From: an archaeon
GTDB taxonomy: Archaea; Nanobdellota; Nanobdellia; Woesearchaeales; GW2011-AR9
Direction of reading: 5' to 3'
NCBI GenBank assembly: GCA_018670085.1
Contig: JABHRS010000008.1
Location: 70,136 to 134,135 of the forward strand
Length of the DNA stretch: 64,000 nucleotides
In this document: in pieces, positions 40,997 through 64,000 of the stretch
Position numbering within the stretch: position 1 is the first letter of the stretch
Layout of the letters: each line of letters starts with the position of its first letter
The notes under the pieces: model-generated
Told to the model about the DNA's origin: nothing
What the model saw: the letters and a program-made list of their open reading frames with translations, nothing else
The model's database searches: none
Position numbers and translations under genes: made by a program

Positions 40997-41166
40997 GCTT
41001 ATAAACCGATTTTGAGTGTTTTAGTAGAATTACACTCGGTTTGTATCAGAGCTTCCTCTGTAAAATCGAATAAGGTCTTCCTCTGGGAAGCCTTTTCGGG
41101 ATTTTTACTCGAGGGAGCAGTGTGGTATGAAGAGGTTAAAACGAAACACTGGAGGTGTTTTTGAAC
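40997..41166 (+). promoter_or_regulatory. candidate promoter (TTATAAA 40999-41005) plus long structured 5' leader and SD of the S-layer gene
   Basis: There is no TATA at -30 from the ATG. The -30 rule would place the TSS near 41029, giving a leader of about 140 nt. Hairpins at 41003-41042 and CTTCC-TCTG-GGAAG (41077-41090). CTTCCTCTG is repeated (41052, 41077). GGAGGTG at 41151-41157. Confidence 0.35.
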
Positions 41167-45980: not shown

Positions 45981-45993
45981 GAGGAAAAACAAA

Positions 45994-47764: not shown

Positions 47765-47780
47765 AGGGATTTTCTAAATT

Positions 47781-48476
47781 ATGGAGATAATAATGATTCA
47801 AAACAATGAAAACATGGTTCAGAGGAAAGTTTGTGCTATAATTCCAGCATATAACGAGGAGAAATATCTTGCTGAAGTGATTAGTGAAACTAAGAAATAT
47901 GTTGATTCAGTTATTGTTGTTGATGATGGGAGTTTAGATAAAACTGCCATAATTGCAAGTAATGAAGCAGATCATTTTTTGAAACATCCAGTGAACAGTG
48001 GGAAGGGCGTTGCCTTGCAAACAGGTTTTTTGTATGCACAAAAATTAGATTTTGATGTAATTATCACAATTGATGCTGATTTACAGCATGATCCAGCTAG
48101 AATTCCTGAATTTTTGAAGGTCTTAGATGAAAAAAAAGCAGACATCATTATTGGGGCTCGAGGTCTTGGAAAATCAGCACCAATTGTGTATAGATTTGGA
48201 AATTTTGTTTTAAATACCACATTTAGTATTTTATATGGTCAGAAAATTACAGATACTCAATCAGGATATCGGGCATTTTTAATGAAATCTTACCCTCACT
48301 TTGTTTGGCAAAGTTCAGGATATGATGTAGAAACTGAAATGCTCACAAATGCTCGTAAACATGGGTTAGTATTAGCTGAGATTCCTATTGCAACAAAGTA
48401 TCATAATTCATATAAAGGGACAACCATCTTTGATGGAGTGAAGATATTTTGTAAGATGCTCCTTTGGCGGGTTTAG
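47781..48476 (+). CDS. GT2-family glycosyltransferase (dolichyl/polyprenyl-phosphate sugar synthase-like)
   Basis: CAIIPAYNEE, VVDDGSLDKT and TIDADLQHDP. Confidence 0.8.
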   Translation: MEIIMIQNNENMVQRKVCAIIPAYNEEKYLAEVISETKKYVDSVIVVDDGSLDKTAIIASNEADHFLKHPVNSGKGVALQTGFLYAQKLDFDVIITIDADLQHDPARIPEFLKVLDEKKADIIIGARGLGKSAPIVYRFGNFVLNTTFSILYGQKITDTQSGYRAFLMKSYPHFVWQSSGYDVETEMLTNARKHGLVLAEIPIATKYHNSYKGTTIFDGVKIFCKMLLWRV

Positions 48477-48499
48477 TCATATATCAAAAGGGAAAAAAT

Positions 48500-48856
48500 A
48501 TGGAAATAATATTACAATCAATTGGATTTGGATTTGCACTTTTTATGCTTTACATTACTTTTACTCAGTTTAAACGCGGAGATTTAACAAGTAAAGACTT
48601 GGCTTTGTGGGGAATTGCATGGGTTGTGCTTGGAATTTTTATTCTGTTTCCGCAAGTAATTGATTCATTTGCGGGGTCTTTGTCTGTGCAAGGAGCGATG
48701 CAGTTTATCATTTTAATTAGTATTGGATTTTTGTTTATTGTAAGTTTTATTGTGTATCAAAAAATGCGAAAACAAGAGATGAAAATCAATAAATTAATCA
48801 GTGCAGTAACTATTGAAAAAACTCCTGAACCAATGGAAGGAAAAAAAGAAGAATAA
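48500..48856 (+). CDS. small multi-TM membrane protein (resembles the small partners found next to GT2 genes)
   Basis: The ORF track starts at TTG 48464, overlapping the GT2 gene. ATG 48500 gives MEIILQSIGFGFALFMLYITF. There are 3-4 hydrophobic helices. Confidence 0.45.
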   Translation: MEIILQSIGFGFALFMLYITFTQFKRGDLTSKDLALWGIAWVVLGIFILFPQVIDSFAGSLSVQGAMQFIILISIGFLFIVSFIVYQKMRKQEMKINKLISAVTIEKTPEPMEGKKEE

Positions 48857-48861
48857 TTGAG

Positions 48862-49665
48862 ATGAATAAGATGACTCTTAGAATAATGACAGTGGATCTT
48901 GAAGGAGATTTTGACACTAAAAATGTTAAGTCATTGGAAAAAATAGTCCCTAAATTGCTTGATTTGTTTGATTCTCGCTCAATAAAAGCCACATTTTTTG
49001 TGGTATCAGAATTACTTGATTCTCATTTAAATTTGATTTTAGAAATAAGAAGACGTGGACATGAAATTGCTTCACACTCAAAAACTCATAGTTTCTTGAA
49101 CTCTAAAAATAGTTTAATTGAAATACAAGAATCTAAGGCACAGTTTGAAGGTGCAGGGATTTATGTCACTGGTTTTAGATCACCTGGATTTATTACAGCA
49201 AATTCACATTTTGAAGATTTGAAAAAATGTGGGTACTCTTATGATTCTTCACTTGCTGTTTTTTGGCCAGGAAGATATATGAATTTTTGGTTAGGTTTTA
49301 GGCCGCAGGCATTTGTTCAAGAATCTCAAGAAACAAGTGGAAATAAAACTAAGATTGTAGAACTGCCAATGCCTACCTTTTTTTGGCCATTGATTAACTC
49401 TGGATTATCATATTTGAGATTATTTAGTCCAGTATCTTTATTGTTTAGAAATCAGTACATGTTCTATCTACATCCTTGGGAGTTTTTAGAAAAGAGTGAT
49501 TTACCTCAGGAAAAGTTGAAATCATTTTTAGGTAAGTTATTACAAAGAAATACTGGAGATAAGGCTTGGAAAATATTTGAGAAATTTTTAGATCAGTGTG
49601 AGAAGAAAAAAGTTGAGTGGGTAAGTTGTTCTGAGTATATTGAGAAGGTTGGCGTTGCTAAGTGA
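48862..49665 (+). CDS. polysaccharide deacetylase (CE4-like)
   Basis: MTVDLEGDF, RRGHEIASHSKTH and GFRSPGF. Confidence 0.7.
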   Translation: MNKMTLRIMTVDLEGDFDTKNVKSLEKIVPKLLDLFDSRSIKATFFVVSELLDSHLNLILEIRRRGHEIASHSKTHSFLNSKNSLIEIQESKAQFEGAGIYVTGFRSPGFITANSHFEDLKKCGYSYDSSLAVFWPGRYMNFWLGFRPQAFVQESQETSGNKTKIVELPMPTFFWPLINSGLSYLRLFSPVSLLFRNQYMFYLHPWEFLEKSDLPQEKLKSFLGKLLQRNTGDKAWKIFEKFLDQCEKKKVEWVSCSEYIEKVGVAK

Positions 49666-49667
49666 GA

Positions 49668-50735
49668 TTAAATACCTAATTCCCTTCTTAGCCTCATTCC
49701 CATCCATTCTGTAACTTTTAGTGGAAGATGTTGCCATATTTTAATTGCAAGTTTGTATTTACTGCTATTTGGATCAAGTTGTTCTGGAATACTTTTGGAT
49801 TTAAGATTCATATAAAATGTAGGCAGATTTGATAACTCTCCCCCCCATTTGCGTTTGTATTCAAAATGACCAGAAGCTTCTCTCACGACTCCAAAATCAA
49901 ATGATTCAAAACCATTTTTGGTAGCCCAACTGATAAATTCCCAATGCATTAAGTCGCTTGGTCTGTATGAAGAAAATTTTGGGTTAGAGATAGCTGTTGT
50001 AATGTGAATTGTTTTGTTATGAGTAAATCCGAGCAATGCAGATATTAATTTATTCTCTTTGAAACACCCATACACTCTTCCCTGATTATTTTTTTGAATT
50101 AATTGGAAAAAGTTACTAAAATAATTTTTACTATATGGTGGACTTCCAAATCTTCGCATATTTTGCAGATAGAGCTTATAGAGGGGATTTAGATCTTGAA
50201 TAGTTAATTCTCTACAAGTGCAATTTTTCCTTGCTTTGTTTATTGCTTTGCGTTTTGATTTTTGGATATTTTTCCATAAAGTTTCTTCGTCTGTTAATTT
50301 AAGAACAAAACGCTTAACACTTTCTTTTTTGATAATATTATATCGGTTTATCTTAGTAGAATTTTTTGGATTATTCTCTTTGTCTATTGATCCATTAATG
50401 ATTAAGTTTTGAAATTCGTTTTGGTATTTTTTTTTGATAAAATCTAAGATTTGTGATAAGAATTTTTGATCTCCTACCATCCCACCATACTCTTGATATC
50501 CAGTTGAGATGATTCTGTTACCAAAAATTATGCTTTTAACTTTGGTGATTGGTAGAACTGTTTTAATCTCTTGTGTATCTTGGTCTTTTGCAATAATGAA
50601 ACATTGTTGATCATTTTTGAAGCTAAAACTTTTGGTGATGAATTCATTCCAAATGTTTGTATGGTATAGAAATGTTTCAGTCTGTAATTCTGTTGTGAAA
50701 TCTACAGAAGATACTTCTTCAATTACGATATTCAT
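49668..50735 (-). CDS. FemAB/CelD-like GNAT-fold acyl- or aminoacyl-transferase
   Basis: 355 aa. The C-terminal block SDLMHWEFISWATKNGFESFDFGVVREASGHFEYKRKWGG is typical of the FemAB-like acetyltransferase family. Confidence 0.55.
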   Translation of the reverse strand: MNIVIEEVSSVDFTTELQTETFLYHTNIWNEFITKSFSFKNDQQCFIIAKDQDTQEIKTVLPITKVKSIIFGNRIISTGYQEYGGMVGDQKFLSQILDFIKKKYQNEFQNLIINGSIDKENNPKNSTKINRYNIIKKESVKRFVLKLTDEETLWKNIQKSKRKAINKARKNCTCRELTIQDLNPLYKLYLQNMRRFGSPPYSKNYFSNFFQLIQKNNQGRVYGCFKENKLISALLGFTHNKTIHITTAISNPKFSSYRPSDLMHWEFISWATKNGFESFDFGVVREASGHFEYKRKWGGELSNLPTFYMNLKSKSIPEQLDPNSSKYKLAIKIWQHLPLKVTEWMGMRLRRELGI

Positions 50736-51787
50736 TGAATCACCTGTTTGATTTTTTCAATTTCTTTTTTGGATCTTAATAATGCAAACGCTAGATGATT
50801 CTTGGCAGCAAATCTTGCTTTTGGAAATTTTGACTTTTGATTTTCTGGTGCTAGAAATTTGAATGATTTCATATTGTCTAGTTCTATTTCTTTTTTTGCA
50901 GCTTTGGTTTTAATTTCAGTTGATTTTTCTTTGATAATTGGCAAATACAAACAAGCGTCTGTGCTTTGGTTTCCAGTGAGCACAGTATAGTTTTTTCTGC
51001 GTTTATTTATTACGCTCGCGTAGCAGTTTGCTTTGTAATTGATCACATTTTGAGCAAATTTAGGTAGAGTATATTGTTTTGCAGGATAATTTTTGATGTT
51101 GGAAACTTGTTTGTTAAGTAATTTTTGAGTCAGTGGAAATAGTAAGTTACTAACAATTATTGGACCAATGATACTTTGAATTATTGATTTTGTCAGATTA
51201 ACCAATGGCATCTTTTTTTGTGATGGTAATTTGAGCTGATTGTCAGATGCAATTAATCCTCCAGTGAATCCAATATTTTTACTAATACCAAACGAGTAAA
51301 TGGCATAGTCTCCAATGGCTCCTGCTAATTTGTTGTTTTGGCTAGCACCAAGAGCTTGTGCACAGTCTTCGATAACCGTAATATTGTTCTGTTTGCAAAG
51401 ATTAGATATTTGTTGAATGTTAGATGGAAGATATCCAAAGTTGTAACATAGTAGAAGAACATCTGGTTTTTGAATGATTACAGATTCAATGTCTTCTTTG
51501 GAGCAGGTAACGCTACTGTCATAGTAGATGATTTTGCAATCTGCGTTTTGGGCTGCTTCTTTGACAACTTGACAAGTGAATGCAGGAATTGCAATAGTTA
51601 GTTTATTTTCGGACTTTTGTTGTAATGATCTGAGTAATAGAAATAATGCGTTTCTTGCGCTAGAAGTCCAGTATAAATTTGATTTTGGGATAAATAATCT
51701 AAGACTGCTATCTGATTGCGGAATGAATCCTGCTAACCAGTCCCATGGTTTGATCATTAATTTTTGTTGGGGAATTGTGTACATCAT
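50732..51787 (-). CDS. DegT/DnrJ/EryC1/StrS-family PLP-dependent sugar aminotransferase
   Basis: Fold-type I pattern with VIEDCAQALGA and YSFGISKNIGFTGGL (Schiff-base Lys). 4-nt overlap with the FemAB-like gene. Confidence 0.65.
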   Translation of the reverse strand: MMYTIPQQKLMIKPWDWLAGFIPQSDSSLRLFIPKSNLYWTSSARNALFLLLRSLQQKSENKLTIAIPAFTCQVVKEAAQNADCKIIYYDSSVTCSKEDIESVIIQKPDVLLLCYNFGYLPSNIQQISNLCKQNNITVIEDCAQALGASQNNKLAGAIGDYAIYSFGISKNIGFTGGLIASDNQLKLPSQKKMPLVNLTKSIIQSIIGPIIVSNLLFPLTQKLLNKQVSNIKNYPAKQYTLPKFAQNVINYKANCYASVINKRRKNYTVLTGNQSTDACLYLPIIKEKSTEIKTKAAKKEIELDNMKSFKFLAPENQKSKFPKARFAAKNHLAFALLRSKKEIEKIKQVIQ

Positions 51788-51836
51788 TTTCTTTTTGCAG
51801 TAAGTATTTAAATAGATTGTGTAGGGAAATACTTAG

Positions 51837-52997
51837 ATGAAAATAACTTATATCTGTCCTACAAATTGTGTTCGTAGACCAATTGCTGAACTTGCTATTT
51901 TGCTTTCAAAAAAAGGGCACGAAGTTAGTGTTGCATATCCATATAGTAAAGAATGTCCTACAGATCACTGGGCTCCAAACAAAAAAATCTTGGATTATAA
52001 AAATGTGAAAAATGTTCACATATCATCATACTATCTCTCTTCTTTACCTTACAATTTTGTCAAACCGATGTCAATGCTCCGTCACGTTCGTGAAATTTTT
52101 AAAGCAGATGTTGTGCACTTGTGGGAATATTGGTATCCAATTTGTATGTTTATTATTTTCTACGCTCTAGTTACTGGACAGCGCAAGAAATTGATTATGA
52201 CAACAGATGGCTTAGTTGGATATTCATATGTTCCAAAGGATCCTTGGTGGGCAGTACCTGTGTTTAAAGTTTATACAAAGACAATTGGACAAATTTTATT
52301 CCGAATTCCTGGAAAGTTGACTACTTATGGGAATGCAATGCTTTCACATGCTAAAAAAGCTGGAATGCCAATGAAAAAATTGATGGTTCAGGGAACGGGA
52401 ATCCATTTAGATAAATTTCAACATGTTTCTGAAGAGAAAGTAAATGACTTGAGAGAGGAATTTTCAGTTGAATCTGATGAGAAAGTGTTATTATTTGTTG
52501 GAATGTTAACTGAGAGGAAGGGAGTTAAAACAGTAATTGAAGTTGGAATCAGATTATTGGATACTGGTAAAAAAATTAAGGTTTTGTTGGTAGGAAGTAC
52601 TGATGATAAACTTTTTTATAAAAAATTAGTGCCTAAAAAATATTCAAAAAAAATAGTATTTGTAGGTGGAAGAACTGATATCCCTGTTTGGATGAATCTA
52701 GCTGATGTGTTATTGCTTCCATCAGAAGGAGAAGGACTCCCTGGTGTTGTAATGGAGGCTATGGCTTCAGGAACAGCTTGTGTAGCTACAAATGAAGGAT
52801 GTACTCCAGATTTAATTGACTCTGGGACTAATGGTTTCTTGGTTGAACATGCTGATGTAGCTAGCTATACTGACGCTGTGAAACAGGTGCTTGATGACTC
52901 AAAGAAATTTGGCGATGCCGCATATGAAAAAATAAAAAATTTTGGATGGGAAAAAGTTGCTAAAGAGTATTTGGAAATTTATAATAAAGAAGTGTAA
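51837..52997 (+). CDS. GT4-family (group 1) glycosyltransferase
   Basis: LLPSEGEGLPGVVMEAMASGTACVATNEGCTPDLI..GTNGFLV (EX7E region). Confidence 0.8.
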   Translation: MKITYICPTNCVRRPIAELAILLSKKGHEVSVAYPYSKECPTDHWAPNKKILDYKNVKNVHISSYYLSSLPYNFVKPMSMLRHVREIFKADVVHLWEYWYPICMFIIFYALVTGQRKKLIMTTDGLVGYSYVPKDPWWAVPVFKVYTKTIGQILFRIPGKLTTYGNAMLSHAKKAGMPMKKLMVQGTGIHLDKFQHVSEEKVNDLREEFSVESDEKVLLFVGMLTERKGVKTVIEVGIRLLDTGKKIKVLLVGSTDDKLFYKKLVPKKYSKKIVFVGGRTDIPVWMNLADVLLLPSEGEGLPGVVMEAMASGTACVATNEGCTPDLIDSGTNGFLVEHADVASYTDAVKQVLDDSKKFGDAAYEKIKNFGWEKVAKEYLEIYNKEV

Positions 52998-54100
52998 ACT
53001 TGTTCTAGATCAATTGCAATTTTTTCTGTTGTAAACTTGATGGCAGAATTGTGACCTTGTTCTAATGTTTCTAACTGTTCTTTACTGCCGTGAAGATTTA
53101 AAGATTTTATTATTGACTTTGCAAGTTCAGCTGGATTATTCTTTTTGAAGATTGTTGCAAACCCAGAGGCTGCTTCTGGAAGTGCACCATTATTGGCAAT
53201 TACAAGTGGAATTTTATTCAAGAGACCTTCAATTATTACATTTCCAAATCCTTCGTCACGAGAGGGAATGATCATAGTAGAACTATTTTGGTAAATCTTT
53301 GCTTTTTCGGTCCCACGTTTGTATCCTAAAAATTCAATACAATCTTGAAGGTGATTTATTTTGCATATTTTTTTGAGTTTGTTAGTATATTTTTCTGAAC
53401 CATTTCCTACAATCTGAAGTTTAGCAGATGGGATTTGTTTTTTGACTTCTTTCATTGATTTGATTAGAAGATCAACTCCTTTTTGGTGAGAAAGTCTGCC
53501 AATGTAGAGAATATTTTTGGCACTTTGTGTGATTATTTCTTTGGTGCCAAGATATCTTGGAGCAGGAATTTGGTTGTACACTACTGAAGATTTATTTTTT
53601 ACTAATTTGAATCTCCATTTGTTTTGGAGATATTTGGAGATGAAAGTTGTATGATCATAGAATGGAAGAAATAATTGCATTGCTGTGAGATAAATTGAGG
53701 CTAGAATTTTCATTGGTACTGAGCCTTCAGTAAAGGAGTTGTGGATTGTCAGAACTATTGGGATTCTGTTCATTTTTGCATGTAACAGACTGAGCTCTGG
53801 AATGAAAGAAGCGTAATGGTGCGTGTGGATAATATCTGGTTTTAGATTTTTTAGCTCTGTTGTGAAATTTTTTAGGATCTTGGTGGAATTTGTCAATTTG
53901 ATCTTTGATGGTAATTGAATTACTTTGATATTATTCCAAATAAACTCCTGACGTGTATCGGTTCTGGATCCACAGAGAAGGGTGACTTGATGTCCACGTT
54001 TGGCTAGGGAGACTAAACCCCACTTTTGTGCGAAGCTATGTTTTGATTCATCGTTTTGATCAATGTACATATTGTCAATGTATGTGTGTACTATGTTCAT
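52979..54100 (-). CDS. GT4-family (group 1) glycosyltransferase
   Basis: IIPSRDEGFGNVIIEGLLNKIPLVIANNGALPE. Its 3' end overlaps the convergent GT gene by 19 nt. Confidence 0.8.
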   Translation of the reverse strand: MNIVHTYIDNMYIDQNDESKHSFAQKWGLVSLAKRGHQVTLLCGSRTDTRQEFIWNNIKVIQLPSKIKLTNSTKILKNFTTELKNLKPDIIHTHHYASFIPELSLLHAKMNRIPIVLTIHNSFTEGSVPMKILASIYLTAMQLFLPFYDHTTFISKYLQNKWRFKLVKNKSSVVYNQIPAPRYLGTKEIITQSAKNILYIGRLSHQKGVDLLIKSMKEVKKQIPSAKLQIVGNGSEKYTNKLKKICKINHLQDCIEFLGYKRGTEKAKIYQNSSTMIIPSRDEGFGNVIIEGLLNKIPLVIANNGALPEAASGFATIFKKNNPAELAKSIIKSLNLHGSKEQLETLEQGHNSAIKFTTEKIAIDLEQVYTSLL

Positions 54101-54192: not shown

Positions 54193-54447
54193 ATGCCAGA
54201 ATTAAATTTACAAATTAAAGATGAAGATTTTGAAGTATTAAAATCAAGAGCAATAGCTCAAGGTTTCTCTGATGTTGAATCTTATTTATTGGATCTTGTT
54301 GGGCAGGTTTTGTTGCAAATTAAAGAAGATATACCAAAAGTTGAGTCAACTGATTCTGAAGATGCTAAACATTCGAAGAATCCAGATTCTGAAATAGACC
54401 CTGATCAAGCAGCTAAAGATGTTTTGCGGGATTTGGGATATATCTGA
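54193..54447 (+). CDS. small acidic protein with a possible ribbon-helix-helix N-terminus
   Basis: LNLQIKDEDFEVLKSRAIAQGFSDVESYLLDLV has the strand-helix-helix pattern of CopG/Arc-type proteins. The acidic tail looks disordered. Confidence 0.4.
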   Translation: MPELNLQIKDEDFEVLKSRAIAQGFSDVESYLLDLVGQVLLQIKEDIPKVESTDSEDAKHSKNPDSEIDPDQAAKDVLRDLGYI

Positions 54448-54605: not shown

Positions 54606-55919
54606 ATGAAAACAGGATATGATGGATTAAAAACAGTTTACGTTGGAATGTGTGCAGATTTGATACACCACGGACATATTAATATTATAAATCAAGCAAG
54701 ACAATATGGTGAGGTGATCGTAGGGCTCTTAACAGATCAAGCAATTTCTAGTTACAAAAGATTACCTGCTTTAACATTTGCACAGCGGAAAACTATTGTA
54801 GAAAATTTGCGTGGAGTTGCTGAAGTTATCCCTCAACACAGCCTAAGTTATGTTGATAATTTGCGAAGATTGAAACCACACTTTGTTGTACATGGTGATG
54901 ATTGGAAAAATGGAGTTCAAAGAGAAACAAGACAACTTGTAATTGATACATTGTCTGAATGGGGTGGACAATTAATTGAGGTTCCTTATACTAAAGATAT
55001 TTCTTCAACTAAGTTGCATAGAGGAATGAAAGAGATTGGAACAACACCAGAAATGAGAATGAAAAAACTTCGTAGACTTTTGGATGTGAAAGATATTGTT
55101 AGAGTTTTGGAAGCACATAATGGATTAAGTGGATTAATTGTTGAAAATACTGCTGTCCTCAAAGAAGGTAGAGCAAAAGTGTTTGATGCAATGTGGATTA
55201 GTAGTTTAACAGATTCAACTGCGAAAGGAAAACCAGATATTGAACTTGTTCAAAGAATGGATACTCTACATCAAGTAATTGAAGCTACTAGTAAACCTAT
55301 AATTGTCGATGGAGACACAGGTGGACGAGTGGAACATTTTGTTTTCACCGTTCGAAGTTTAGAGCGGCTTGGAGTTTCAGCTGTAATTATTGAAGACAAA
55401 GTAGGTCTTAAGAAAAATTCATTATTTGGAACTGGTGCAAATCAAAAACAAGATACTATTGAAAATTTTTCTTATAAAATTAACAGTGGGAAAAAAGCAC
55501 AGGTTACAGATGATTTTATGATTATTGCAAGAATTGAAAGTTTGATTTTGAAAGCTGGACTTGAAGACGCTTTAGCTCGTGCTAAAGCATATATCGAAGC
55601 TGGAGCTGACGGAATCATGATTCACAGTAAAGAGAAAGAATCTACTGAGATTTTAGAATTTTGTAGTAGGTATAAGATGTTTGATAGAAAGGTCCCATTA
55701 GTTGTGGTACCTTCTACTTATTGTCATATTACTGAGAATGAATTGATTGAAAATGGAATTAGTGTAGTAATTTATGCAAACCATTTGCTTCGTAGCGCTT
55801 ACCCTGCTATGCAAAAAACTGCTGAGTCAATTCTGATGGAGAGTCGAAGTTTAGAGGCTAGTACAACCCATTGTATGCCGATAAAGGAGATTTTGACTTT
55901 GATACCAGGTGGTAAGTGA
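54606..55919 (+). CDS. pepM: bifunctional cytidylyltransferase / phosphoenolpyruvate mutase (Fom1- or PntC-PepM-like fusion)
   Basis: N-terminus [15 protein letters not shown] (HxGH) and [10 protein letters not shown] (RTxGISTT-like). C-terminus [28 protein letters not shown] (EDKxxxKxNS PepM signature) and IARIES. Confidence 0.85.
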
Positions 55920-56044
55920 TCTATTTATTCTTTCTTTTTTTAATTCTTTTTTTAATCAATTTGATCTTGAAAATTCATAAGATTTAAAAGGTAACTCTCA
56001 ACTAGTAGTGTCATAAATGTACAACATTTTGGAGATGAAAAACT

Positions 56045-57172
56045 ATGATTAAACCACAAATTTTTTATGATACTTTATCAGAGCATGGCTTAAACACATT
56101 TGCAGGAGTACCTGATTCTTTACTAAAAGCGCTTTGTGCGTATGTTGCTGATAATGCTGCGCCACAGAATAATGTGACTACAGCAAACGAAGGTAACGCA
56201 ATTGGTTTTGCAGCTGGACACTACATGGCTACAGGAAAACCTGCAGTTGTATACATGCAAAATTCTGGGCTTGGAAACACTGTGAACCCACTTACATCTT
56301 TAACAGATCCTCAAGCTTATTCAATTCCAGCATTGTTGATTGTTGGATGGAGAGGAGAACCAGATGTAAAGGATGAACCTCAACATAAAAAGATGGGAGA
56401 GATTACATGTAGTCAATTAGATTTACTTGGAATCCCATATAGTGTGATTGACAAAGATACTGCTAATGTTGCAGATATAATTCAAACAGCATCAAAACAT
56501 ATGGCAGAAAAAAATAGTCCATATGCAATTGTTGTTAGGAAGGGAGCGTTTGAAGCATACAAGTTACAGAGTATTGTTACTACAAGTTTTGAATTAAGTC
56601 GTGAAGATGCTGTAAAATTAGTTGCAGATTCAGTTGATGAAAGTGGAGTTATTGTTTCAACTACTGGAAAAACTTCTCGTGAATTATTTGAACATCGTGT
56701 ATCAAAAGGCCAAGGGCATGAAAAAGACTTTTTGTCAATTGGTTCAATGGGACATGCATCTTCTATTGCACTTGCTATTGCGCTTGCGAAACCTGAACGT
56801 CAAGTATATTGTTTTGACGGTGACGGAGCTGCATTAATGCATATGGGTTCATTGCCAGTTATCGCAGGACTAAGTCCTTCAAACTATAAACACATTGTAT
56901 TCAACAATGGGGCACATGATTCTGTTGGTGGACAACCAACTGTTGGACATGGAATTGATTTACCAGCAATTGCTTTAGCTTCAGGGTATAAAGCTGCGTT
57001 TAAGGCGGAAACAGCAGAAGAAGTTCGTGCACGTTTATCTGAGATGCAGAAAATGGATGGACCAGTTCTTTTGGAAATTTTAGTGAATAAAGGCGCAAGA
57101 AGCGATTTGGGTAGACCAACTAACACTCCGCATGGGAATAGGGCTGCGTTTATGGCTGCTTTGAAAGGGTAA
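56045..57172 (+). CDS. ppd: phosphonopyruvate decarboxylase (ThDP-dependent)
   Basis: 375 aa. ThDP motif GDGAALMHMGSLPV...FNNGAHDSVGGQ. N-terminal PYR-domain pattern FAGVPDSLLK. Genomic context next to pepM. Confidence 0.8.
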   Translation: MIKPQIFYDTLSEHGLNTFAGVPDSLLKALCAYVADNAAPQNNVTTANEGNAIGFAAGHYMATGKPAVVYMQNSGLGNTVNPLTSLTDPQAYSIPALLIVGWRGEPDVKDEPQHKKMGEITCSQLDLLGIPYSVIDKDTANVADIIQTASKHMAEKNSPYAIVVRKGAFEAYKLQSIVTTSFELSREDAVKLVADSVDESGVIVSTTGKTSRELFEHRVSKGQGHEKDFLSIGSMGHASSIALAIALAKPERQVYCFDGDGAALMHMGSLPVIAGLSPSNYKHIVFNNGAHDSVGGQPTVGHGIDLPAIALASGYKAAFKAETAEEVRARLSEMQKMDGPVLLEILVNKGARSDLGRPTNTPHGNRAAFMAALKG

Positions 57173-57211
57173 ATTTTTTAAAGTTCTTTTTTATTTTTAT
57201 TTTTATTGATT

Positions 57212-58339
57212 ATGGTAGTTGAACAAATAATATATACAGGTATTGAGCAAATTCAAAGTATTTTAGAATCTGCACTTGTGAAAGATGTTTTCTTAGTTAC
57301 TGGTAATAGGTCTTACGAACTAAGTGGTGCTAAGGAACAATTAGAAACTTTGCTATCTGACTATAATGTAACTGAGTTTTCTGATTTTGAAAAGAATCCT
57401 AAAGTTGAAGATTTAAGACGAGGAATTGAAAAATATCGTAATTCTAACTCAAACATTGTATTAGCAGTTGGTGGGGGAAGTGTTTTAGATATGGGAAAAT
57501 CAATTGCTTTACTTGCAGGACAATCTTTGGACCCTGAAGAATATATTACAAAGCGAAGTGCAATCGTTGGAGAAAGTGTTCCATTGATCGCAGTACCAAC
57601 AACATCAGGCAGTGGGAGCGAAGCAACACATTTTGCAGTTGTTTATATTAACAAACAAAAATATTCGTTGGCGCATCAAAGTATGTTACCAAAGTATGTG
57701 GTATTGGATTCCAAATTGACTGAAAGTTTGCCAGTTTCGATCACAGCTTCAACTACCATGGATGCCTTTTCTCAGGGGATGGAATCTTATTGGAGCGTAG
57801 CATCAACTGATGAATCAAAAAGTTACGCTAAAGGTGCTTTGGAATTAATTATGAAACATGGAGTTGCAAATGTTAATAATCCTAACTCTGAGACTAGAGC
57901 TGCTATACAAATTGCTGCTAACTTGGCTGGAAAAGCAATTAATATTTCTAAGACAACGGCTTGTCATGCAATCTCTTACACCTTTACTTCATATTTTGGA
58001 ATCCCTCATGGACATGCGGTTGGTTTGACGCTTGCTTCACTTTTTGAGTATAATGCAGCTGTTAGTTTGGATGATTGTAATGATCCGCGTGGATCTGAGT
58101 ATGTTCAAGGAGTGTTTTCTGACTTGAGAAATTTTTTGGGTGTTAATAGTTCAGCTGAAGCTGTCAGTAAAATCAATTCTTTGATGACAGATATGGGACT
58201 AGAGACTTCTTTGTCAGTTCTTGGAATTGGTGATTGTTCTGAAATTGCAGTTAAGAATGTGAATTTGGAGCGACTGGGAAATAATCCAAGGAAAATTGGC
58301 GCAGAAGAGATTAAAGAAGTGATATTGGGAATTCAGTGA
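57212..58339 (+). CDS. group III iron-dependent alcohol dehydrogenase (phosphonoacetaldehyde reductase candidate)
   Basis: AVGGGSVLDMGK and the His-rich metal site region CHAISY...PHGHAV. The ORF track starts at TTG 57206. Context follows pepM-ppd. Confidence 0.7.
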   Translation: MVVEQIIYTGIEQIQSILESALVKDVFLVTGNRSYELSGAKEQLETLLSDYNVTEFSDFEKNPKVEDLRRGIEKYRNSNSNIVLAVGGGSVLDMGKSIALLAGQSLDPEEYITKRSAIVGESVPLIAVPTTSGSGSEATHFAVVYINKQKYSLAHQSMLPKYVVLDSKLTESLPVSITASTTMDAFSQGMESYWSVASTDESKSYAKGALELIMKHGVANVNNPNSETRAAIQIAANLAGKAINISKTTACHAISYTFTSYFGIPHGHAVGLTLASLFEYNAAVSLDDCNDPRGSEYVQGVFSDLRNFLGVNSSAEAVSKINSLMTDMGLETSLSVLGIGDCSEIAVKNVNLERLGNNPRKIGAEEIKEVILGIQ

Positions 58340-58351
58340 TTGATGTTAAAA

Positions 58352-59512
58352 TTACTCTAAACTGATGTCTGCTTGTTGCTTTAAATGTTCTAACAGTTTT
58401 GTTCGGAGTTCTTGGAACTCAGCGTCTTGCTGCATGGTTTCAAATAAATTGTTTGTTTCTTGCGGGTCTTTTATGAGGTCGTAATACTCCCATGTTTTGG
58501 TTGTGTTGTTAAAAATTATTTTTTTGTTCTTGAACCTTAATGCAAATAAGTTATGTCTTTTTGGTGATGGGTTAGGTCCACCTAAACCGCCAGTTTCTAG
58601 ATAAGCTGGACGCTCTTGAATCTCTTCATTCTCAGCAACTAGTAGTGATTGACCTTGCATTTTTTTACTGGAATCTTTTGGAATTTGAAGCATTTCTAAC
58701 AATGTTGGAAGGATATCAATTGTTCTGACTTGCTGATTGATTTTTTTAATTGGAAGACTTGGTCCTTTGATACAAGCCCAGACTTTTGTTGTATAATCGT
58801 ATAAATATGTGCCATACATTTTTTCACCTGGTTTCTCGCCGCAACTAGTACCATGGTCAGCATGAATCATTAGAACTGTATTCTTGTCAAGTCCAGTCTT
58901 TTTTAGGTGTTCTTGAAGATCATTTAGAAACTTATCACAACCTTGAATTGATTTTTCATATTTTTGAAAGTTTTCATCTTGATTTGAGAAATATGTTTTA
59001 TCAAAATCATCTAAACCTTTGGTATGTTCAACAGAATAATGATGAATTTTACTGTATTGGAAATAGATGAAAAACGGCTGCTGATTTGTTTTTTGATTTT
59101 CTTGCTGCTTTTGAATTCCGGAATCGATGTGGGAGATGATTCTGGTTTTGAACTCAGTCTCTTCACTTTTGTGAGGATGTGTCTCATCAAATTCTTTGGT
59201 GGGAAATAAGTTAACATTTAATGCATCAAATATACAGTAATAATTTTGTTCTTTGAGGTATTCTACTAATGTTTTGGCAACTGTGTAGTCGAATTTGAAT
59301 ATGTTAAAATAAGCGTTCACTCCATGATTATAAGGGTAAAGTCCAGAAAACATAGATGTTAAGGAACCGATTGTGTATGGAACTGCAGTTACTAAATTTG
59401 AGAGGAAAAAACTTTCATCCATCATTTTTTTAATTGCTGGAATCTGCTCAATCTTGTCTCGTCTTAGTCCATCAAGGGTTACAACAATTAAATTTGGCTT
59501 TTGCTGATGCAT
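58352..59512 (-). CDS. alkaline-phosphatase-superfamily (sulfatase-like) hydrolase/transferase
   Basis: NLIVVTLDGLRRD, PYTIGSLTSMFSGLYP (Ser/Thr where sulfatases have CxPxR) and IHADHGTSCGE. Confidence 0.7.
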   Translation of the reverse strand: MHQQKPNLIVVTLDGLRRDKIEQIPAIKKMMDESFFLSNLVTAVPYTIGSLTSMFSGLYPYNHGVNAYFNIFKFDYTVAKTLVEYLKEQNYYCIFDALNVNLFPTKEFDETHPHKSEETEFKTRIISHIDSGIQKQQENQKTNQQPFFIYFQYSKIHHYSVEHTKGLDDFDKTYFSNQDENFQKYEKSIQGCDKFLNDLQEHLKKTGLDKNTVLMIHADHGTSCGEKPGEKMYGTYLYDYTTKVWACIKGPSLPIKKINQQVRTIDILPTLLEMLQIPKDSSKKMQGQSLLVAENEEIQERPAYLETGGLGGPNPSPKRHNLFALRFKNKKIIFNNTTKTWEYYDLIKDPQETNNLFETMQQDAEFQELRTKLLEHLKQQADISLE

Positions 59513-59605
59513 AGCTGGATATTGGATTTTTTGTTTATAAGAGTTATGGATTGCTGATAATAGAAATATTCTGTAGATAATTTGGATAATATAGATTTTG
59601 TAGAA

Positions 59606-61138
59606 TTAGATCTTTAATTTTTTGAATATTCTCTCTGTTGGGTTCCTCTTTGGTCTTACTTGATTGTATGTTCTGTTGAAAACATTCAAATTTTTTCCAT
59701 CTAAATTATTTGGAATTGAAAAATAATCTAACACAGTAGGAGCGATATCACACATTTCTCCTGTGATTCTCTTTCCAATTTCTGTTTTTTCTGGATCATT
59801 GTTTTTTGTATAAGCTAAGAAAAAAGCCTTACTGTCATGAAATTGAGCTTTTTTGTGGATAATAGTTTTGTCTGTGATCACATTGTCAAAATCATACTTA
59901 TCAATAATTTCAATTAGAATATGTCCAAACCGCCGATGAAGTGTTTCAATTTTCTTTGGATCAGAAACAGAATAATAATCCTCAGTGTTATAACAACGCA
60001 GGTCAAGTTCTGTTTCAATTATTTTTTTGATTTCTTCTTTGGTTTTTTCCCTTTGTTCTTTATTTTCTTCAAGTAACTTAATGATTGGAACGTGTTTTAA
60101 TTCTGCTACTGCTTTTGTAAGATTGCGATCAATTTTTAATCCTTTTTTATTCACAGGATCGTATGGCAAATATCCTCGGATTAGACGGTACCATTTTTTT
60201 GAGAGGTTATGCAGTGGACCATACTCTTTGATTTTTTTAACTAAATAATCAAAAAATATTTCAGTTTTTTTGTATTTGATAGCTTTACTATTCCCATCTT
60301 TGTCTTGAACTGTTGTTTTTTCGATCAAGTATCCATTTTGTTTTAGTAGACAATTGATGTGCAGAACCCCATCAAAGATACTAGACCCATGGTCACTAAA
60401 AAGCATAAAATCATCTTCTGATTGAATTTCTTCGATCATCCATTTGATGATATTGTCTATTCTGGTGAGAGTTTTTTTAGCAATCTTAGTTTCAGCTGAA
60501 TTTTTTTTAGCAATCAGATCTAGTAGGACTTTGTGTTGAATCCAATCGATCACGGCAAATTGAAAAAATAGTAAATCATACTCTTTGGTTTTTTTGTTAT
60601 GTAACATAACTTCTTTGAGAATTTTTTGGTTATTGATAACAGTTTGATCCATGTGTTCAAGGGCACCCAAAATACTTTTTGCTTTCCATTTAGTGTTGAT
60701 GTAGTCATTGATTGAAGGAAATTTTGACTTAAGAGATGCTGGTTTACAAGTCCCTTGAACTGTGGATGCGTCAAAAATATTTCTAACAATATCACCTTTG
60801 ATTTTGGTACTTCTAGAAAAAGGAAGATCCATTAAAAACATTTTATTGTTGGCTTTTTCAATGGTTTCATAAAAAAATTCTTCTGTAATATCCTCTTCTT
60901 TTACTAACTGTAATTCTCCTTCTTTGTCATAGAAACAATTAGCTACAAATCCATGTTTTCCAATACTTTTTCCAGTAAAAATAGAGGTCCAAGAAGATCC
61001 TGAAAGGTAGGGATTCACACCTTTAAGAGTTGCATGGAAACTTCTGTCTCTTAAGGAATATAAATATGGCATGGATTCTTTACAGAGTTCCAACAGTTCT
61101 TCATTCATTCCATCTAAACCAAGGATAATTAGGGCCAT
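59606..61138 (-). CDS. alkaline-phosphatase-superfamily (type I phosphodiesterase / nucleotide pyrophosphatase-like) protein
   Basis: MALIILGLDGMN, YLSGSSWTSIFTGKS and LFSDHGSS. Confidence 0.65.
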   Translation of the reverse strand: MALIILGLDGMNEELLELCKESMPYLYSLRDRSFHATLKGVNPYLSGSSWTSIFTGKSIGKHGFVANCFYDKEGELQLVKEEDITEEFFYETIEKANNKMFLMDLPFSRSTKIKGDIVRNIFDASTVQGTCKPASLKSKFPSINDYINTKWKAKSILGALEHMDQTVINNQKILKEVMLHNKKTKEYDLLFFQFAVIDWIQHKVLLDLIAKKNSAETKIAKKTLTRIDNIIKWMIEEIQSEDDFMLFSDHGSSIFDGVLHINCLLKQNGYLIEKTTVQDKDGNSKAIKYKKTEIFFDYLVKKIKEYGPLHNLSKKWYRLIRGYLPYDPVNKKGLKIDRNLTKAVAELKHVPIIKLLEENKEQREKTKEEIKKIIETELDLRCYNTEDYYSVSDPKKIETLHRRFGHILIEIIDKYDFDNVITDKTIIHKKAQFHDSKAFFLAYTKNNDPEKTEIGKRITGEMCDIAPTVLDYFSIPNNLDGKNLNVFNRTYNQVRPKRNPTERIFKKLKI

Positions 61139-61341: not shown

Positions 61342-62463
61342 GTGAAATATTGTAAAAAATGTGTTCAACCAGATACTAGGCCAAGTATTAAATTTGATGA
61401 GAACGGAATATGTCCTGCTTGCACTTATGTCGATAAAGCACAATATATTGACTGGGAAGAAAGGCAGCAAGAATTGCTCAAAATAGTTGAAAAGTATAAA
61501 AAACACAATAAAATAAATCATTATGATTGTATCATTGGTGTAAGTGGTGGAAAAGATAGTCTTCGTCAGGCAATGTATGTTAAAGATGTTCTAAAATTAA
61601 AGGCACTGCTTGTTTCTTGTACTTACCCTCCTGAACAACAAACAGAACGAGGAGCATATAATCTTGCAAATATGATTAAACTTGGTTTTGATACAATCTC
61701 TATTGGACCAAGCCCAAAAATTTGGAAACGTTTAATGCGACAGGGATTTTTGAAGTATGGGAATTGGGCAAAATCAACAGAAATGGCACTTTTTGCGAGT
61801 GTTCCACGTCTGGCAATTGCGTATCATATTCCATTAATTCTTTGGGGTGACAATCCAGCAATTCAATTTGGAAATTTAGGAGCAGGTTCAATGACTTGGG
61901 ATGGTAACCGAGCAAAAAATACTAACACACTTTCTGGAGGACCTGATGTTTTAATTGAAGAGGATATGCAAGAAAATGAAATTATTTGGTATAGGTATCC
62001 AAGCGATGAAGAAATGGTTATGGCAAATTTACAAATTGTGTATTTAGGATATTTTTGGAGTGATTGGAGTAAAATAAATAATGCGAATTTTTCCATTGCA
62101 CATGGAATTGATATTAGACAAAAGAATTCTTTGAAACAAGGAGCATTGAACCAGTTTGAAGCGCTTGATGATGATTTTGTGGTAGTAAACCAAATGATCA
62201 AACACATTAAATTTGGATTTGGAAAAGTAAGTGATGAAGTTTGTGAAATGATTCGTTCTGGGTCTCTAACTCGTGAAGAAGGGTTCAAATTAGTTAAAAA
62301 ATACGATGGAAAATGTGACAACGAGTATGTTAAAAGGTTTTGTCAGTATATTGAAATTAGTGAAGAAAAATTTTGGGAAATTGTAGAGTCTTATAGAAAT
62401 TTAGAAATCTGGAAAAAAAATGAAAGTGGGGAATGGCAGTTAATAGATTTTCCAGATGTATAA
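61342..62463 (+). CDS. N-acetyl sugar amidotransferase (PP-loop; WbpG/WbuX/PseA-like)
   Basis: GTG start. Zn-ribbon CKKCVQPDTRPSIKFDENGICPAC and PP-loop IIGVSGGKDS. Confidence 0.75.
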   Translation: MKYCKKCVQPDTRPSIKFDENGICPACTYVDKAQYIDWEERQQELLKIVEKYKKHNKINHYDCIIGVSGGKDSLRQAMYVKDVLKLKALLVSCTYPPEQQTERGAYNLANMIKLGFDTISIGPSPKIWKRLMRQGFLKYGNWAKSTEMALFASVPRLAIAYHIPLILWGDNPAIQFGNLGAGSMTWDGNRAKNTNTLSGGPDVLIEEDMQENEIIWYRYPSDEEMVMANLQIVYLGYFWSDWSKINNANFSIAHGIDIRQKNSLKQGALNQFEALDDDFVVVNQMIKHIKFGFGKVSDEVCEMIRSGSLTREEGFKLVKKYDGKCDNEYVKRFCQYIEISEEKFWEIVESYRNLEIWKKNESGEWQLIDFPDV

Positions 62464-62466
62464 AAA

Positions 62467-63150
62467 ATGGTAAAAGATAAATTTTTTTGGAAGAGACCAG
62501 TTGTGGTGATTGATTATGGAGTGGGAAATATTTTCTCTATCACTAATGCTCTTGAACATCTTGGTTATTCATATATGATATCAAATAAGGAAGCTGATAT
62601 TAAAGCAGCGTCTGCTTTGATTTTGCCTGGTGTTGGTGCGTTTAAAGAAGCTATGAATAATTTAAACTCACTTGGATTAATTCCAACACTTGAAGAGGCA
62701 GTACTAATACAGAAGAAACCAATACTTGGAATCTGTCTTGGAATGCAAATTCTTGGAACAAGTTCTGAAGAAAATGGACACTACAAAGGCCTTGATTGGA
62801 TTCCTGGAAAAAATGTGCTTTTTACAGAAATTGGAAATTTAAAAATACCTCATGTTGGATGGAACACAGTTAATATTAAAAGAAAAATTCCACTATTTTC
62901 TAACATTTTGGAAAATTCACAACCACATTATTATTTTGATCATAGTTATCACTTTGTTTGCGATGAAGAATTTATTAGCGCAACATGTAATTATGGGAAA
63001 GAAGTAGTGGTGGCAATTCAGAAAGAAAATATTTTTGGTGTGCAATTTCATCCTGAAAAAAGTCAAAACAGCGGATTTAGACTTTATAGAGGATTTTTTG
63101 AGTATGTAAAATCACAGTTCAAACATAGGATGGTGAAGATGGATGCTTAA
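62467..63150 (+). CDS. HisH-like class I glutamine amidotransferase subunit (WbuY-like)
   Basis: LGICLGMQIL (nucleophile Cys) and GVQFHPEKS (His-Glu). Confidence 0.85.
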   Translation: MVKDKFFWKRPVVVIDYGVGNIFSITNALEHLGYSYMISNKEADIKAASALILPGVGAFKEAMNNLNSLGLIPTLEEAVLIQKKPILGICLGMQILGTSSEENGHYKGLDWIPGKNVLFTEIGNLKIPHVGWNTVNIKRKIPLFSNILENSQPHYYFDHSYHFVCDEEFISATCNYGKEVVVAIQKENIFGVQFHPEKSQNSGFRLYRGFFEYVKSQFKHRMVKMDA

Positions 63151-64000
63151 GAAAAGAGTAATTGCTTGTTTAGTAATAAAAAATGGAATTGTAGTTCAAA
63201 GTATTGGGTTTGAGAAATATTTGCCTGTTGGAATTCCAGAAATTGCAGTAGAATTTCTTAACTCATGGGGAATTGATGAAATAGTTCTATTAGATATTGA
63301 TGCGACATTGGAAAACAGAGAGCCAGATTTTGAAATGATAAAGAGGATTTCAAAGAAATGTTTTGTTCCATTAACAATTGGTGGTGGGATAAAAAGTGTT
63401 GCAGTTATGAAAAAATTAATCAGAACTGGGGCTGATAAAATTGCAATCAACAGTTTGGCGGTAAATAATCCTTCTCTAATAAGTGAAGCTGCAGCAGTTC
63501 TTGGGAAACAATGTATTGTGGTTTCAATTGATGCTAAATGTAGAAAAAGAGAAGATGGAATTATCTGGCATGAAGTTATGATCAACAATGGGAAAGAAGG
63601 TACTGGACTTGATGTTGTCAATTTTTCCAAAAAATGCGAAGAGTTAGGTGCTGGGGAAATTATAGTTAACTCTATAGATAATGATGGATCAAAAAATGGT
63701 CTTGATATTGAATTAATCCGGAGCGTAAGTTCTGCTGTTTCTATTCCAGTAATTGCAATCGGAGGAGTTGGGCATCCAGAGCATTTTGCAGAAGGGTTTA
63801 TTCAAGGGAATGCAATGGCAGTAGCTGCTGCAAACTATTTCCATTTCACTGAACATAGCCCAATTATTGTAAAGGAGTATTTAATGTCATACACAACAAT
63901 TAGACCAAGGCATGAGACTTATATTAATTATGAGGGATTTTCATTTAACAAGTATGGACGAATTAAAAAACGTGAAGAAGATTATTTAGATAAGACCAGG
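63143..64000 (+). CDS. HisF-like (beta/alpha)8 cyclase subunit (WbuZ-like), 3' end outside the window
   Basis: Open frame from ATG 63143 (8-nt overlap with the HisH-like stop) to the window edge. Blocks: RVIACLVIKNGIVVQS, DEIVLLDIDA, LTIGGGI, GADKIAINS, GAGEIIVNSIDNDGSKNGLD, IAIGGVG. It is missing from the ORF track because it is edge-truncated. Confidence 0.8.
   Translation, partial: MLKKRVIACLVIKNGIVVQSIGFEKYLPVGIPEIAVEFLNSWGIDEIVLLDIDATLENREPDFEMIKRISKKCFVPLTIGGGIKSVAVMKKLIRTGADKIAINSLAVNNPSLISEAAAVLGKQCIVVSIDAKCRKREDGIIWHEVMINNGKEGTGLDVVNFSKKCEELGAGEIIVNSIDNDGSKNGLDIELIRSVSSAVSIPVIAIGGVGHPEHFAEGFIQGNAMAVAAANYFHFTEHSPIIVKEYLMSYTTIRPRHETYINYEGFSFNKYGRIKKREEDYLDKTR

Follow-up and report, generated by a model that had tools for sequence, protein, structure and literature searches.

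Fom1 of Streptomyces wedmorensis carries a cytidylyltransferase (CyTase) domain of family PF01467 ahead of a phosphoenolpyruvate (PEP) mutase domain of family PF13714, and its CyTase domain is a biochemically defined 2-hydroxyethylphosphonate (HEP) cytidylyltransferase (PMC6697681). Of all genuine PEP mutases (Ppm, also PepM), 23.6% are fused to a PF01467 domain, with Fom1 as the exemplar, and 33% to a PF12804 domain of the PntC/LicC type (Rice et al., 2019; PMC6697681). A gene for a fusion of the Fom1 type, followed by genes for a phosphonopyruvate decarboxylase (Ppd) and an iron-dependent alcohol dehydrogenase (Fe-ADH), is found in a 64-kb stretch of the archaeal contig JABHRS010000008.1 (the window, by which the whole stretch is meant), beside two genes of the alkaline phosphatase (AP) superfamily that encode proteins of 386 and 510 amino acids (AP386 and AP510). 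We read this locus, with a probability of about 0.6, as a cassette for HEP biosynthesis and activation within the surface-glycan cluster of a marine, Woesearchaeota-like (DPANN) archaeon, in which HEP activated with cytidine monophosphate (CMP-HEP) would serve as the glycan donor and AP386 and AP510 would be the best candidates for its transfer. The core of this reading (Fom1-type fusion, HEP branch and phosphonoglycan-type context) is of an already known kind, and the chemistry of PepM, Ppd, PhpC and Fom1-type CyTases is textbook and widespread.

The fusion of the window resembles Fom1 in its domain order, in a CyTase domain that is 63% identical and retains the HxGH and ISST motifs, in the Ppd and PhpC/FomC-type ADH genes that follow, and in its predicted product, CMP-HEP. 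Unlike the Fom1 system, the locus has no Fom3 or Fom4 homologue in the window and stands in an archaeal glycan context instead of an antibiotic cluster; because of these missing homologues and the glycan-assembly context, CMP-HEP is predicted to be the end donor here and not a transient intermediate. It is highly improbable that the locus yields a diffusible phosphonate akin to fosfomycin, a natural product for which CMP-HEP would be a passing stage. The Fom1 architecture was indeed first defined in fosfomycin biosynthesis (PMC6697681), but no match to a Fom3-like (B12-binding radical-SAM) or Fom4/HppE-like (cupin) protein is present in the window, neither non-ribosomal peptide synthetase nor ATP-grasp tailoring genes are apparent, and the surrounding genes are those of glycan assembly.

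The Pnt pathways of bacterial surfaces likewise combine a Ppm–nucleotidyltransferase (NTase) fusion, cytidylyl activation of a small phosphonate and attachment to a surface polymer (PMC6697681). PntC, however, is a PF12804 (LicC-like) enzyme that acts on 2-aminoethylphosphonate (AEP), whereas the NTase here belongs to PF01467, its predicted substrate is HEP, and the usual LicD-type partner is absent from the window. The original prediction had treated the Fom1 and PntC cytidylyltransferases as one architecture, which does not hold, as PF12804 is a family separate from PF01467 (PMC6697681). No homologue of a PF12804-type NTase was found by tblastn in the window or in its sister contigs.

Archaeal phosphonate clusters are known from Thaumarchaeota. 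In a Nitrosopumilus-type methylphosphonate cluster (metagenome locus L089; L-numbers denote the related loci compared), as in the window, archaeal pepM, ppd and Fe-ADH genes lie by glycosyltransferase (GT), epimerase, NTase and sulfatase-like genes. The parallel with this type of locus, drawn in the original prediction, is real: a 374-aa sulfatase-like protein of L089 is a 34%-identical homologue of AP386 with a Thr nucleophile, and its gene is placed directly beside mpnS, between mpnS and the gene of a PF12804 NTase. The full order in L089 is GT1, sulfatase-like, MpnS, AP386 homologue, PF12804 NTase, Ppd-beta, Ppd-alpha, PepM, Fe-ADH and epimerase. L089 differs from the window in having mpnS, an unfused PepM (37–39% identity), a split two-subunit Ppd and a standalone PF12804 NTase, whereas the window has no mpnS, a fused PF01467 NTase and, in addition, the NPP-type AP510. 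Arylsulfatase-like, NTase and GT genes in pepM/phpC and mpnS neighbourhoods have been read as signs of phosphonate-ester synthesis (Lockwood et al., 2022; PMC9381506), and our statements on the N. maritimus cluster rest on that study and on the analysis of L089.

The product predicted here, HEP esterified to a polysaccharide, has its counterpart in the HEP phosphonoglycans of Glycomyces and Stackebrandtia (Yu et al.); that chemistry was observed in actinomycetes and in seawater, whereas the product of the window is a predicted one. Precedent is provided by HEP phosphonoglycans in actinomycetes, by HEP and methylphosphonate esters on marine polysaccharides, and by arylsulfatase-like genes near pepM/mpnS (PMC13576164, PMC8942020, PMC9381506, PMC8931226). 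A large part of the dissolved organic phosphorus in the sea consists of HEP and methylphosphonate esters of polysaccharides, which are also a source for aerobic methane production (PMC9381506, PMC8931226). On the present evidence, marine Woesearchaeota-type DPANN archaea are genomically plausible producers of HEP-glycans. To our knowledge, no enzyme has yet been assigned to the attachment of phosphonates to sugars, and little is known of the organisms behind the HEP fraction. AP386 and AP510 offer a concrete candidate pair for this attachment, a step common to the methylphosphonate clusters, and are in that sense a lead more than a surprise.

Predicted enzymes of the HEP branch and their spread

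Five open reading frames (ORFs) had been delimited in the original prediction; all five were found at the same positions (Table 1), and every motif it cited is present in their translations. Its assignment of the first ORF to a Fom1-type CyTase joined to a PEP mutase is borne out by the PF01467 and PF13714 domains and by the Fom1 CyTase domain structure (PDB 5X3D), to which the N-terminal domain aligns with 85 of 135 residues identical (63%; phmmer E = 6.4e-57). The HxGH motif reads HHGH (aa 21–24), and ISSTKL is found at aa 132–137. On the basis of its similarity to Fom1 and its co-conservation with a PhpC-type ADH, this domain is predicted to make CMP-HEP from HEP and cytidine triphosphate (CTP).

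In the mutase domain, the EDKxxxxxNS motif, which distinguishes Ppm from other enzymes of the isocitrate lyase family, occupies aa 263–272 of the fusion. E263, D264, N271 and S272 are invariant, and K265 is nearly so (at least 90%), in an alignment of 14 homologues (A1). The fusion scores 393.6 bits against the PEP mutase model TIGR02320 (cut-off 319.55), while it falls far under the cut-offs of the sister-family models for phosphonopyruvate hydrolase (132 against 374 bits), methylisocitrate lyase (99 against 354) and carboxyphosphonoenolpyruvate mutase (45 against 420). The PepM structures 5UNC and 1M1B match it at E values of about 1e-40. With TIGR02320 passed and the sister models failed, the domain is a genuine PepM and not an enzyme of the methylisocitrate lyase type, a distinction on which the original prediction had made its own case depend.

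The Ppd gene begins 125 bp downstream of the fusion gene, and the ADH gene lies 33 bp beyond it. The Ppd protein has the thiamine diphosphate (ThDP) motif GDG...NN and reaches 492.3 bits with TIGR03297 (cut-off 312.5). It stays well under the cut-offs for sulfopyruvate decarboxylase (ComE, 117 against 221.5 bits; ComD, 96.6 against 148), and acetolactate synthase models give about 54 bits or less. The decarboxylase, a single-chain enzyme, is therefore a genuine Ppd, as had been proposed, and not one of the sulfopyruvate or acetolactate type, the second distinction on which the original prediction had made its case depend.

The Fe-ADH is a group III metal-dependent ADH (PF00465, E = 2e-38; also PF25137). 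Its top NCBIfam match, below the cut-off, is TIGR03405 (Phn_Fe-ADH), with AdhE (161 bits) and ErcA (154 bits) as other matches. TIGR03405 is now named PsrA, a PhpC homologue, and the PhpC enzymes are reported to be very divergent (PMC13576164). This match, together with conserved synteny, is in line with the earlier description of the enzyme as PhpC-like, and it is predicted to be a phosphonoacetaldehyde reductase of the PhpC/FomC type that yields 2-HEP. At aa ~196–200 the protein reads TMDAFSQGMESYW, with Gln in place of His in the D-x-x-x-H motif, which we take to be the usual metal motif of group III ADHs; the nearest solved relative, 6JKO, likewise has Gln.

From family membership, the PepM domain would convert PEP to phosphonopyruvate, and Ppd would convert this to phosphonoacetaldehyde and CO2, drawing the unfavourable mutase equilibrium forward. 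The PhpC-type ADH would then turn phosphonoacetaldehyde into HEP, and the CyTase domain would combine HEP with CTP to give CMP-HEP.

A role of this fusion type in the HEP branch, with the ADH as phosphonoacetaldehyde reductase, is best supported by the tight co-conservation of the trio. At least 8000 homologues of the fusion were found at E ≤ 1e-20, many of them already labelled by JGI as 'phosphoenolpyruvate phosphomutase / 2-hydroxyethylphosphonate cytidylyltransferase', and the cassette was found in at least 593 loci in a scan of one genome per prokaryotic species. Neighbourhoods were compared for the best 80 of these at least 593 loci (62–70% identity), which cover Cloacimonadota, Ignavibacteria, Bacteroidales, Elusimicrobia, Clostridium, Gammaproteobacteria and Methanosarcinales. 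Where at least 3.5 kb was available on either side of the fusion (49 loci), Ppd is present in 48, Fe-ADH in 45, and the strict order fusion-Ppd-ADH in 39; three of the four exceptions to the 45/49 conservation of the trio are Clostridium loci. A few related loci, among them L050, also have an AEP-transaminase-like gene with the cassette. Among ppm neighbourhoods in general, the HEP branch accounts for 8.5%, and ppm occurs in 1.6% of archaeal genomes (Li and Horsman, 2022; PMC8942020).

The best 80 loci include five Woesearchaeota and four Nanoarchaeota/Nanoarchaeia metagenome-assembled genomes (MAGs). With at least nine other species-level DPANN MAGs carrying the cassette, and with NCBI and JGI already annotating its genes in Woesearchaeota/Nanoarchaeota MAGs, the remark in the original prediction that a phosphonoglycan would be unusual in a DPANN archaeon was overstated at the genomic level. 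No discussion of DPANN phosphonate clusters was found in the literature searched. In an unbootstrapped neighbour-joining tree, the window protein groups with two other DPANN sequences, and archaeal copies fall into several groups interleaved with bacterial ones. A recent horizontal transfer from bacteria was considered and rejected, as the GC content of the cassette (0.35–0.39) is only slightly above the window mean (0.339) and the window protein lies among DPANN copies in that tree. These patterns suggest that the cassette is mobile, with old and repeated transfer between domains rather than a recent event here.

Probable end of the pathway

Homologues of further pathway enzymes were sought by tblastn with representatives from the related loci as queries, of which the MpnS query (from L089) was verified against N. 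maritimus MpnS (PDB 6B9S, E = 5e-193). No MpnS/HEPD homologue was found with this query in the window or in the sister contigs (E ≤ 10). In the window, the searches found no B12-binding radical-SAM (Fom3-like) homologue (E ≤ 1), no AEP transaminase, LicD, TagF-like or CDP-alcohol phosphatidyltransferase homologue, and, by the MpnS/cupin query, no Fom4/HppE-like gene. As to FomD, no DUF402 is present among the Pfam matches of the flanking genes, although no direct FomD search was made. The absence of MpnS/HEPD, AEP transaminase and Fom3-like genes, noted earlier for the cassette and its neighbours, thus holds across the window, and the pathway probably stops at CMP-HEP within the available sequence.

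HEP could instead be merely an intermediate, which an MpnS, HEPD or Fom3-type enzyme encoded outside the window would convert to methylphosphonate, hydroxymethylphosphonate or 2-hydroxypropylphosphonate before attachment. Some related archaeal loci with the same fusion do have an MpnS/HEPD-like gene (L053; partial in L017) or a B12 radical-SAM gene (L016, L045, L053, L069), and the AP386 homologue of L089 belongs to an mpnS cluster. This alternative is nevertheless unlikely, given that the tblastn searches with MpnS and B12 radical-SAM representatives were empty for the window and that the related loci always keep these genes within the cluster, never at a remote site.

A role of CMP-HEP in forming the head group of a phosphonolipid, and not a phosphonoglycan, is very unlikely. 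CDP-alcohol phosphatidyltransferase genes stand by the cassette in the archaeal loci L016, L029, L034, L053, L066 and L076, and phosphonates activated with CMP are known to end up in phosphonolipids (PMC6697681). The window, however, has no homologue of such a transferase, and the immediate neighbours of the cassette on both sides are glycan genes. Moreover, DPANN archaea usually lack lipid synthesis of their own.

The radical-SAM genes by the fusion in the four archaeal loci are located at L016:13532–14959, L045:8010–9509, L053:11332–12591 and L069:4764–6272; they may encode Fom3-like methyltransferases that act on CMP-HEP outside antibiotic clusters. In L053, a marine archaeal MAG, the MpnS/HEPD-like cupin gene (8643–10001), which adjoins the gene of the Fom1-type fusion, has 39% full-length identity to the MpnS of L089; the partial match in L017, a Woesearchaeota MAG, is found at 6585–7823.

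AP386 and AP510 as candidates for the transfer step

If CMP-HEP serves as the glycan donor, as we propose, it would be spared from Fom3- or MpnS-type chemistry and would esterify HEP onto a sugar hydroxyl of a lipid- or protein-linked surface glycan. Judging from gene context, the acceptor glycan would be assembled in the cytoplasm by the products of the flanking PF00953 phosphosugar-transferase, GT and amino-sugar genes. AP386, AP510 or both could then act by a ping-pong mechanism, in which Thr47 (AP386) or Ser46 (AP510) would attack the phosphonyl phosphorus of CMP-HEP, CMP would leave, and the sugar hydroxyl would resolve the phosphonyl-enzyme.

AP386 has a sulfatase-type fold (PF00884, E = 1e-24; PF01663, E = 9e-16). 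Its Thr47 aligns with the formylglycine Cys of S1 sulfatases, and a Leu takes the place of the motif Arg; at the C/S-x-P-x-R site the protein reads T-I-G-S-L, which departs from the S1 formylglycine sulfatase motif. D14, T47, D219 and H220 are invariant in the clade alignment (A2), with D14, D219 and H220 as the metal site. AP510 is of the NPP type (PF01663, E = 2.4e-24; 87 bits against a gathering score of 23) and belongs to a narrow family of nine matches. Its two-metal ligands D9, D198, H202, D249, H250 and H434 are invariant (alignment A3), and Ser46 is found where distant relatives have Thr. The expectation of Ser or Thr, and not Cys, at the nucleophile position is therefore correct for both proteins.

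The accompanying comparison with LtaS and EptA fits less well. AP386 shares with EptA/MCR and LtaS a sulfatase-like fold family, a Thr nucleophile and an Asp/Asp-His metal site, by which transfer through a covalent intermediate is conceivable. Unlike those enzymes, AP386 and AP510 have no N-terminal membrane domain, transmembrane segment or signal peptide (best 19-residue hydrophobicity of 1.19 and 1.14, respectively, against a threshold of 1.6), their catalytic domains begin at residue ~3–6, and AP510 is NPP-type. As they lack transmembrane segments, both are predicted to be placed in the cytoplasm, where nucleotide donors are available, and lipid-donor chemistry of the EptA/LtaS kind at the outer face would therefore be impossible for them.

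It is conceivable, though doubtful, that the AP386 clade, possibly with AP510, is the missing enzyme class that links small alkylphosphonates, namely HEP in this locus and methylphosphonate in clusters of the Nitrosopumilus type, to sugars as esters by way of a CMP-phosphonate and a covalent phosphonyl-Thr/Ser. If this were true, it would be a new reaction type for the AP superfamily and the step that gives rise to phosphonate-ester polysaccharides in marine dissolved organic matter, and DPANN archaea would be a hitherto overlooked source of the HEP fraction.

Several points weigh against the proposed donor and transfer scheme. We know of no AP-superfamily enzyme that transfers a group from a nucleotide-activated donor to a sugar, and the known AP-type transferases, EptA and LtaS, use lipid donors outside the membrane. 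Of the 80 cassette loci, just three have AP386 and not one has AP510 (E ≤ 1e-5, at least 50% coverage). Elsewhere the cassette adjoins LicD, TagF-like or CDP-alcohol transferases, which are established users of CMP/CDP-activated donors. The structure models are too poor for the active sites to be read from them, with a mean predicted local distance difference test score (pLDDT) of 55.8 and a predicted template modelling score (pTM) of 0.49 for AP510 (8-sequence alignment), and a pLDDT of 39.8 for AP386 (single sequence). The Fe-ADH, for its part, scores 184 bits against TIGR03405, under the cut-off of 423.7, though this is still its top NCBIfam match. The linkage between AP genes and the cassette is lineage-restricted (L066, L069) and not general; the transferase role given to these genes in the original prediction stays conditional here. 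A YidC-sulfatase membrane protein is also among the cassette neighbours elsewhere.

The main alternative is that CMP-HEP is made but AP386 and AP510 are hydrolases (for FomD-like release of HEP, or for ester trimming and recycling) or act on some other anionic substituent, the HEP transferase being encoded elsewhere or by an unannotated gene. This is a distinct possibility, albeit short of probable. Most characterised soluble members of PF00884/PF01663 are hydrolases, and hydrolase-type proteins, PhnA and ENPP, are the top fold matches: a Foldseek search with the low-confidence AP510 model retrieved PhnA (1EI6, E = 5e-5) and ENPP1 at TM-scores of only 0.2–0.3, which we take to confirm the superfamily only, and a sequence search of the PDB with AP510 returned nothing meaningful. 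It also fits this alternative that most cassette loci have LicD, TagF-like or CDP-alcohol transferases in place of the AP genes, and that AP510 relatives occur in polysaccharide loci without pepM, in one case by sulfate-activation-type genes. Opposed to it are the lack of any LicD, TagF-like or CDP-alcohol phosphatidyltransferase homologue in the window, the fact that AP genes and the cassette share an operon in L066 and L069, and the occurrence of AP386-clade genes beside nucleotidyltransferases in three distinct head-group contexts. A cytoplasmic hydrolase of its own operon's product would, furthermore, be futile unless it were FomD-like.

The two operons are both from Nanoarchaeota. In L066, two AP386-type genes follow straight after Ppd-ADH on the same strand, overlapping or abutting that operon. 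In L069, homologues of AP510 and AP386 immediately precede the cassette and share its strand, the gene order being unlike that of the window. The AP510 homologue of L069 is full length, with 23% identity over ~480 aa (E = 5e-14), the same Ser context and a PF01663 match at E = 2e-35, and its AP386 homologue is 41% identical to AP386. Immediately ahead of these AP510-like and AP386-like genes and of the CyTase and fusion genes, L069 has, on the same strand, a HIT-domain gene (L069:6335–6949) of a nucleotide hydrolase/transferase family.

When metagenomes were scanned with the clade alignment of AP386, 12 relatives of 29–36% identity were obtained. Three of these (in L088, L089 and L096) lie 1–3 kb from genes for an unfused PepM, a split Ppd and an Fe-ADH. 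In long loci without pepM (L086, L087 and L094), the AP386 relative adjoins a LicC-like NTase, further sulfatase-like paralogues, a protein like pyruvate phosphate dikinase (PPDK) and a GATase, whose top NCBIfam match, under the cut-off, is gamma-glutamyl-CDP-amidate hydrolase. Distant relatives of AP510 are found in polysaccharide clusters with other AP paralogues. The constant partner of the soluble AP proteins is thus a module predicted to make a nucleotide-activated anionic group, a setting that a transferase role would plausibly fit.

Two of these neighbourhoods may be described further. In the marine locus L087 (2515–11544; L094 and L086 are similar), a PRK05849 PPDK-like protein of 814 aa is encoded with the GATase, the LicC-like NTase and 3–4 sulfatase-like paralogues, including the AP386 relative, an arrangement that resembles a phosphoramidate-type activation pathway coupled to AP-family genes. 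In L167 (4707–11104), from Micrarchaeota, CysD/CysN-type genes (PAPS_reduct, GTP_EFTU) stand by three genes of family PF01663, including that of an AP510 relative, and by a polysaccharide flippase gene.

Glycan context, host and neighbouring genes

The features of the window discussed here are listed in Table 1. As the original prediction had it, glycan genes lie on either side of the cassette. The upstream set comprises genes for a polytopic Glycos_transf_4 (PF00953) phosphosugar transferase, a GT2, a DUF2304 protein, a polysaccharide deacetylase, a FemAB-like acyltransferase, a DegT aminotransferase and two GT1 enzymes. Downstream, the WbuX-type protein scores 327.8 bits against TIGR03573 (cut-off 203.2) and the HisH-like protein is matched by TIGR01855; on the sister contigs, His_biosynth is followed by a UDP-GlcNAc 2-epimerase (Epimerase_2).

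Table 1. Positions of the cassette, the AP genes and other features in the window
Feature	Position	Strand	Remarks
1874-aa protein	9864–15488	+	Weak Glucodextran_B and purple-acid-phosphatase-N-like matches
S_layer_C family protein	41155–43722	+	855 aa; ~11 kb upstream of the cassette
Upstream glycan-assembly genes	46772–54100		Pfam on sister contigs, transmembrane profile
84-aa ORF	54193–54447	+	No Pfam family; 158 bp upstream of the fusion gene
CyTase–PEP mutase fusion gene	54606–55919	+	437 aa
CyTase domain	54606–55040	+	aa ~1–145; PF01467 at aa 16–137, E = 2.8e-13
PEP mutase domain	55068–55919	+	aa 155–437; PF13714 at aa 155–410, E = 5.2e-55, profile positions 1–240 of 240
Ppd gene	56045–57172	+	375 aa
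Fe-ADH gene	57206–58339	+	377 aa, TTG start; other annotations start at ATG 57212, 2 codons later
AP386 gene	58352–59512	-	386 aa
AP510 gene	59606–61138	-	510 aa; same direction as AP386
Downstream glycan genes	61342–64000	+	WbuX-type N-acetyl-sugar amidotransferase, HisH-like, HisF-like (truncated by window end)

It is reasonable to take the acceptor as a surface glycan, possibly an S-layer N-glycan. The S_layer_C protein and the 1874-aa protein are possible glycosylated surface proteins and hence possible acceptors for the glycan. The AglB motif WWDYG was not found in the six frames of the window. The 84-aa ORF upstream of the fusion gene is kept on all sister contigs and is absent from the 80 related loci; its membership in the phosphonate system is uncertain.

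The archaeal character of the window is seen from an intron-containing tRNA (100 nt, 35469–35568, + strand), which was matched by Rfam at 52.4 bits and for which ARAGORN gave no hit, from the S_layer_C protein and from an archaeal LonB. The DPANN-like host originally supposed is supported by the nearest named relatives of this LonB, which are Woesearchaeota, Nanoarchaeota or 'archaeon' at 71–77% identity. An identical fusion protein is found on at least 24 assembled contigs (NCBI MAG GCA_018656565.1, JGI and ENA metagenomes), always in the same arrangement. The 'tara' source tag on close relatives, together with contig names, suggests a marine habitat. Scans for sigma-70 promoters and intrinsic terminators gave fewer promoter-like sites than shuffled controls and no terminator-like sites, and were set aside as models not applicable to an archaeon.

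Three further features of the window are out of the ordinary. Immediately upstream of the glycan locus lie three ATP-citrate-lyase-type genes (ATP-grasp_2/Citrate_bind; CoA_binding/Ligase_CoA; Citrate_synt; 43834–46740, + strand), which are unexpected in a reduced DPANN genome. A long RelA/SpoT homologue (18960–20882, + strand) has HD_4, RelA_SpoT, TGS and ACT domains, an architecture that is uncommon among the (p)ppGpp enzymes of archaea. Close to it, a 458-aa protein (17486–18862, + strand) has a weak match to VanY (D-Ala-D-Ala carboxypeptidase; E = 3e-5, just under the gathering score), which is odd for an archaeon and could be related to a bacterial host or prey.

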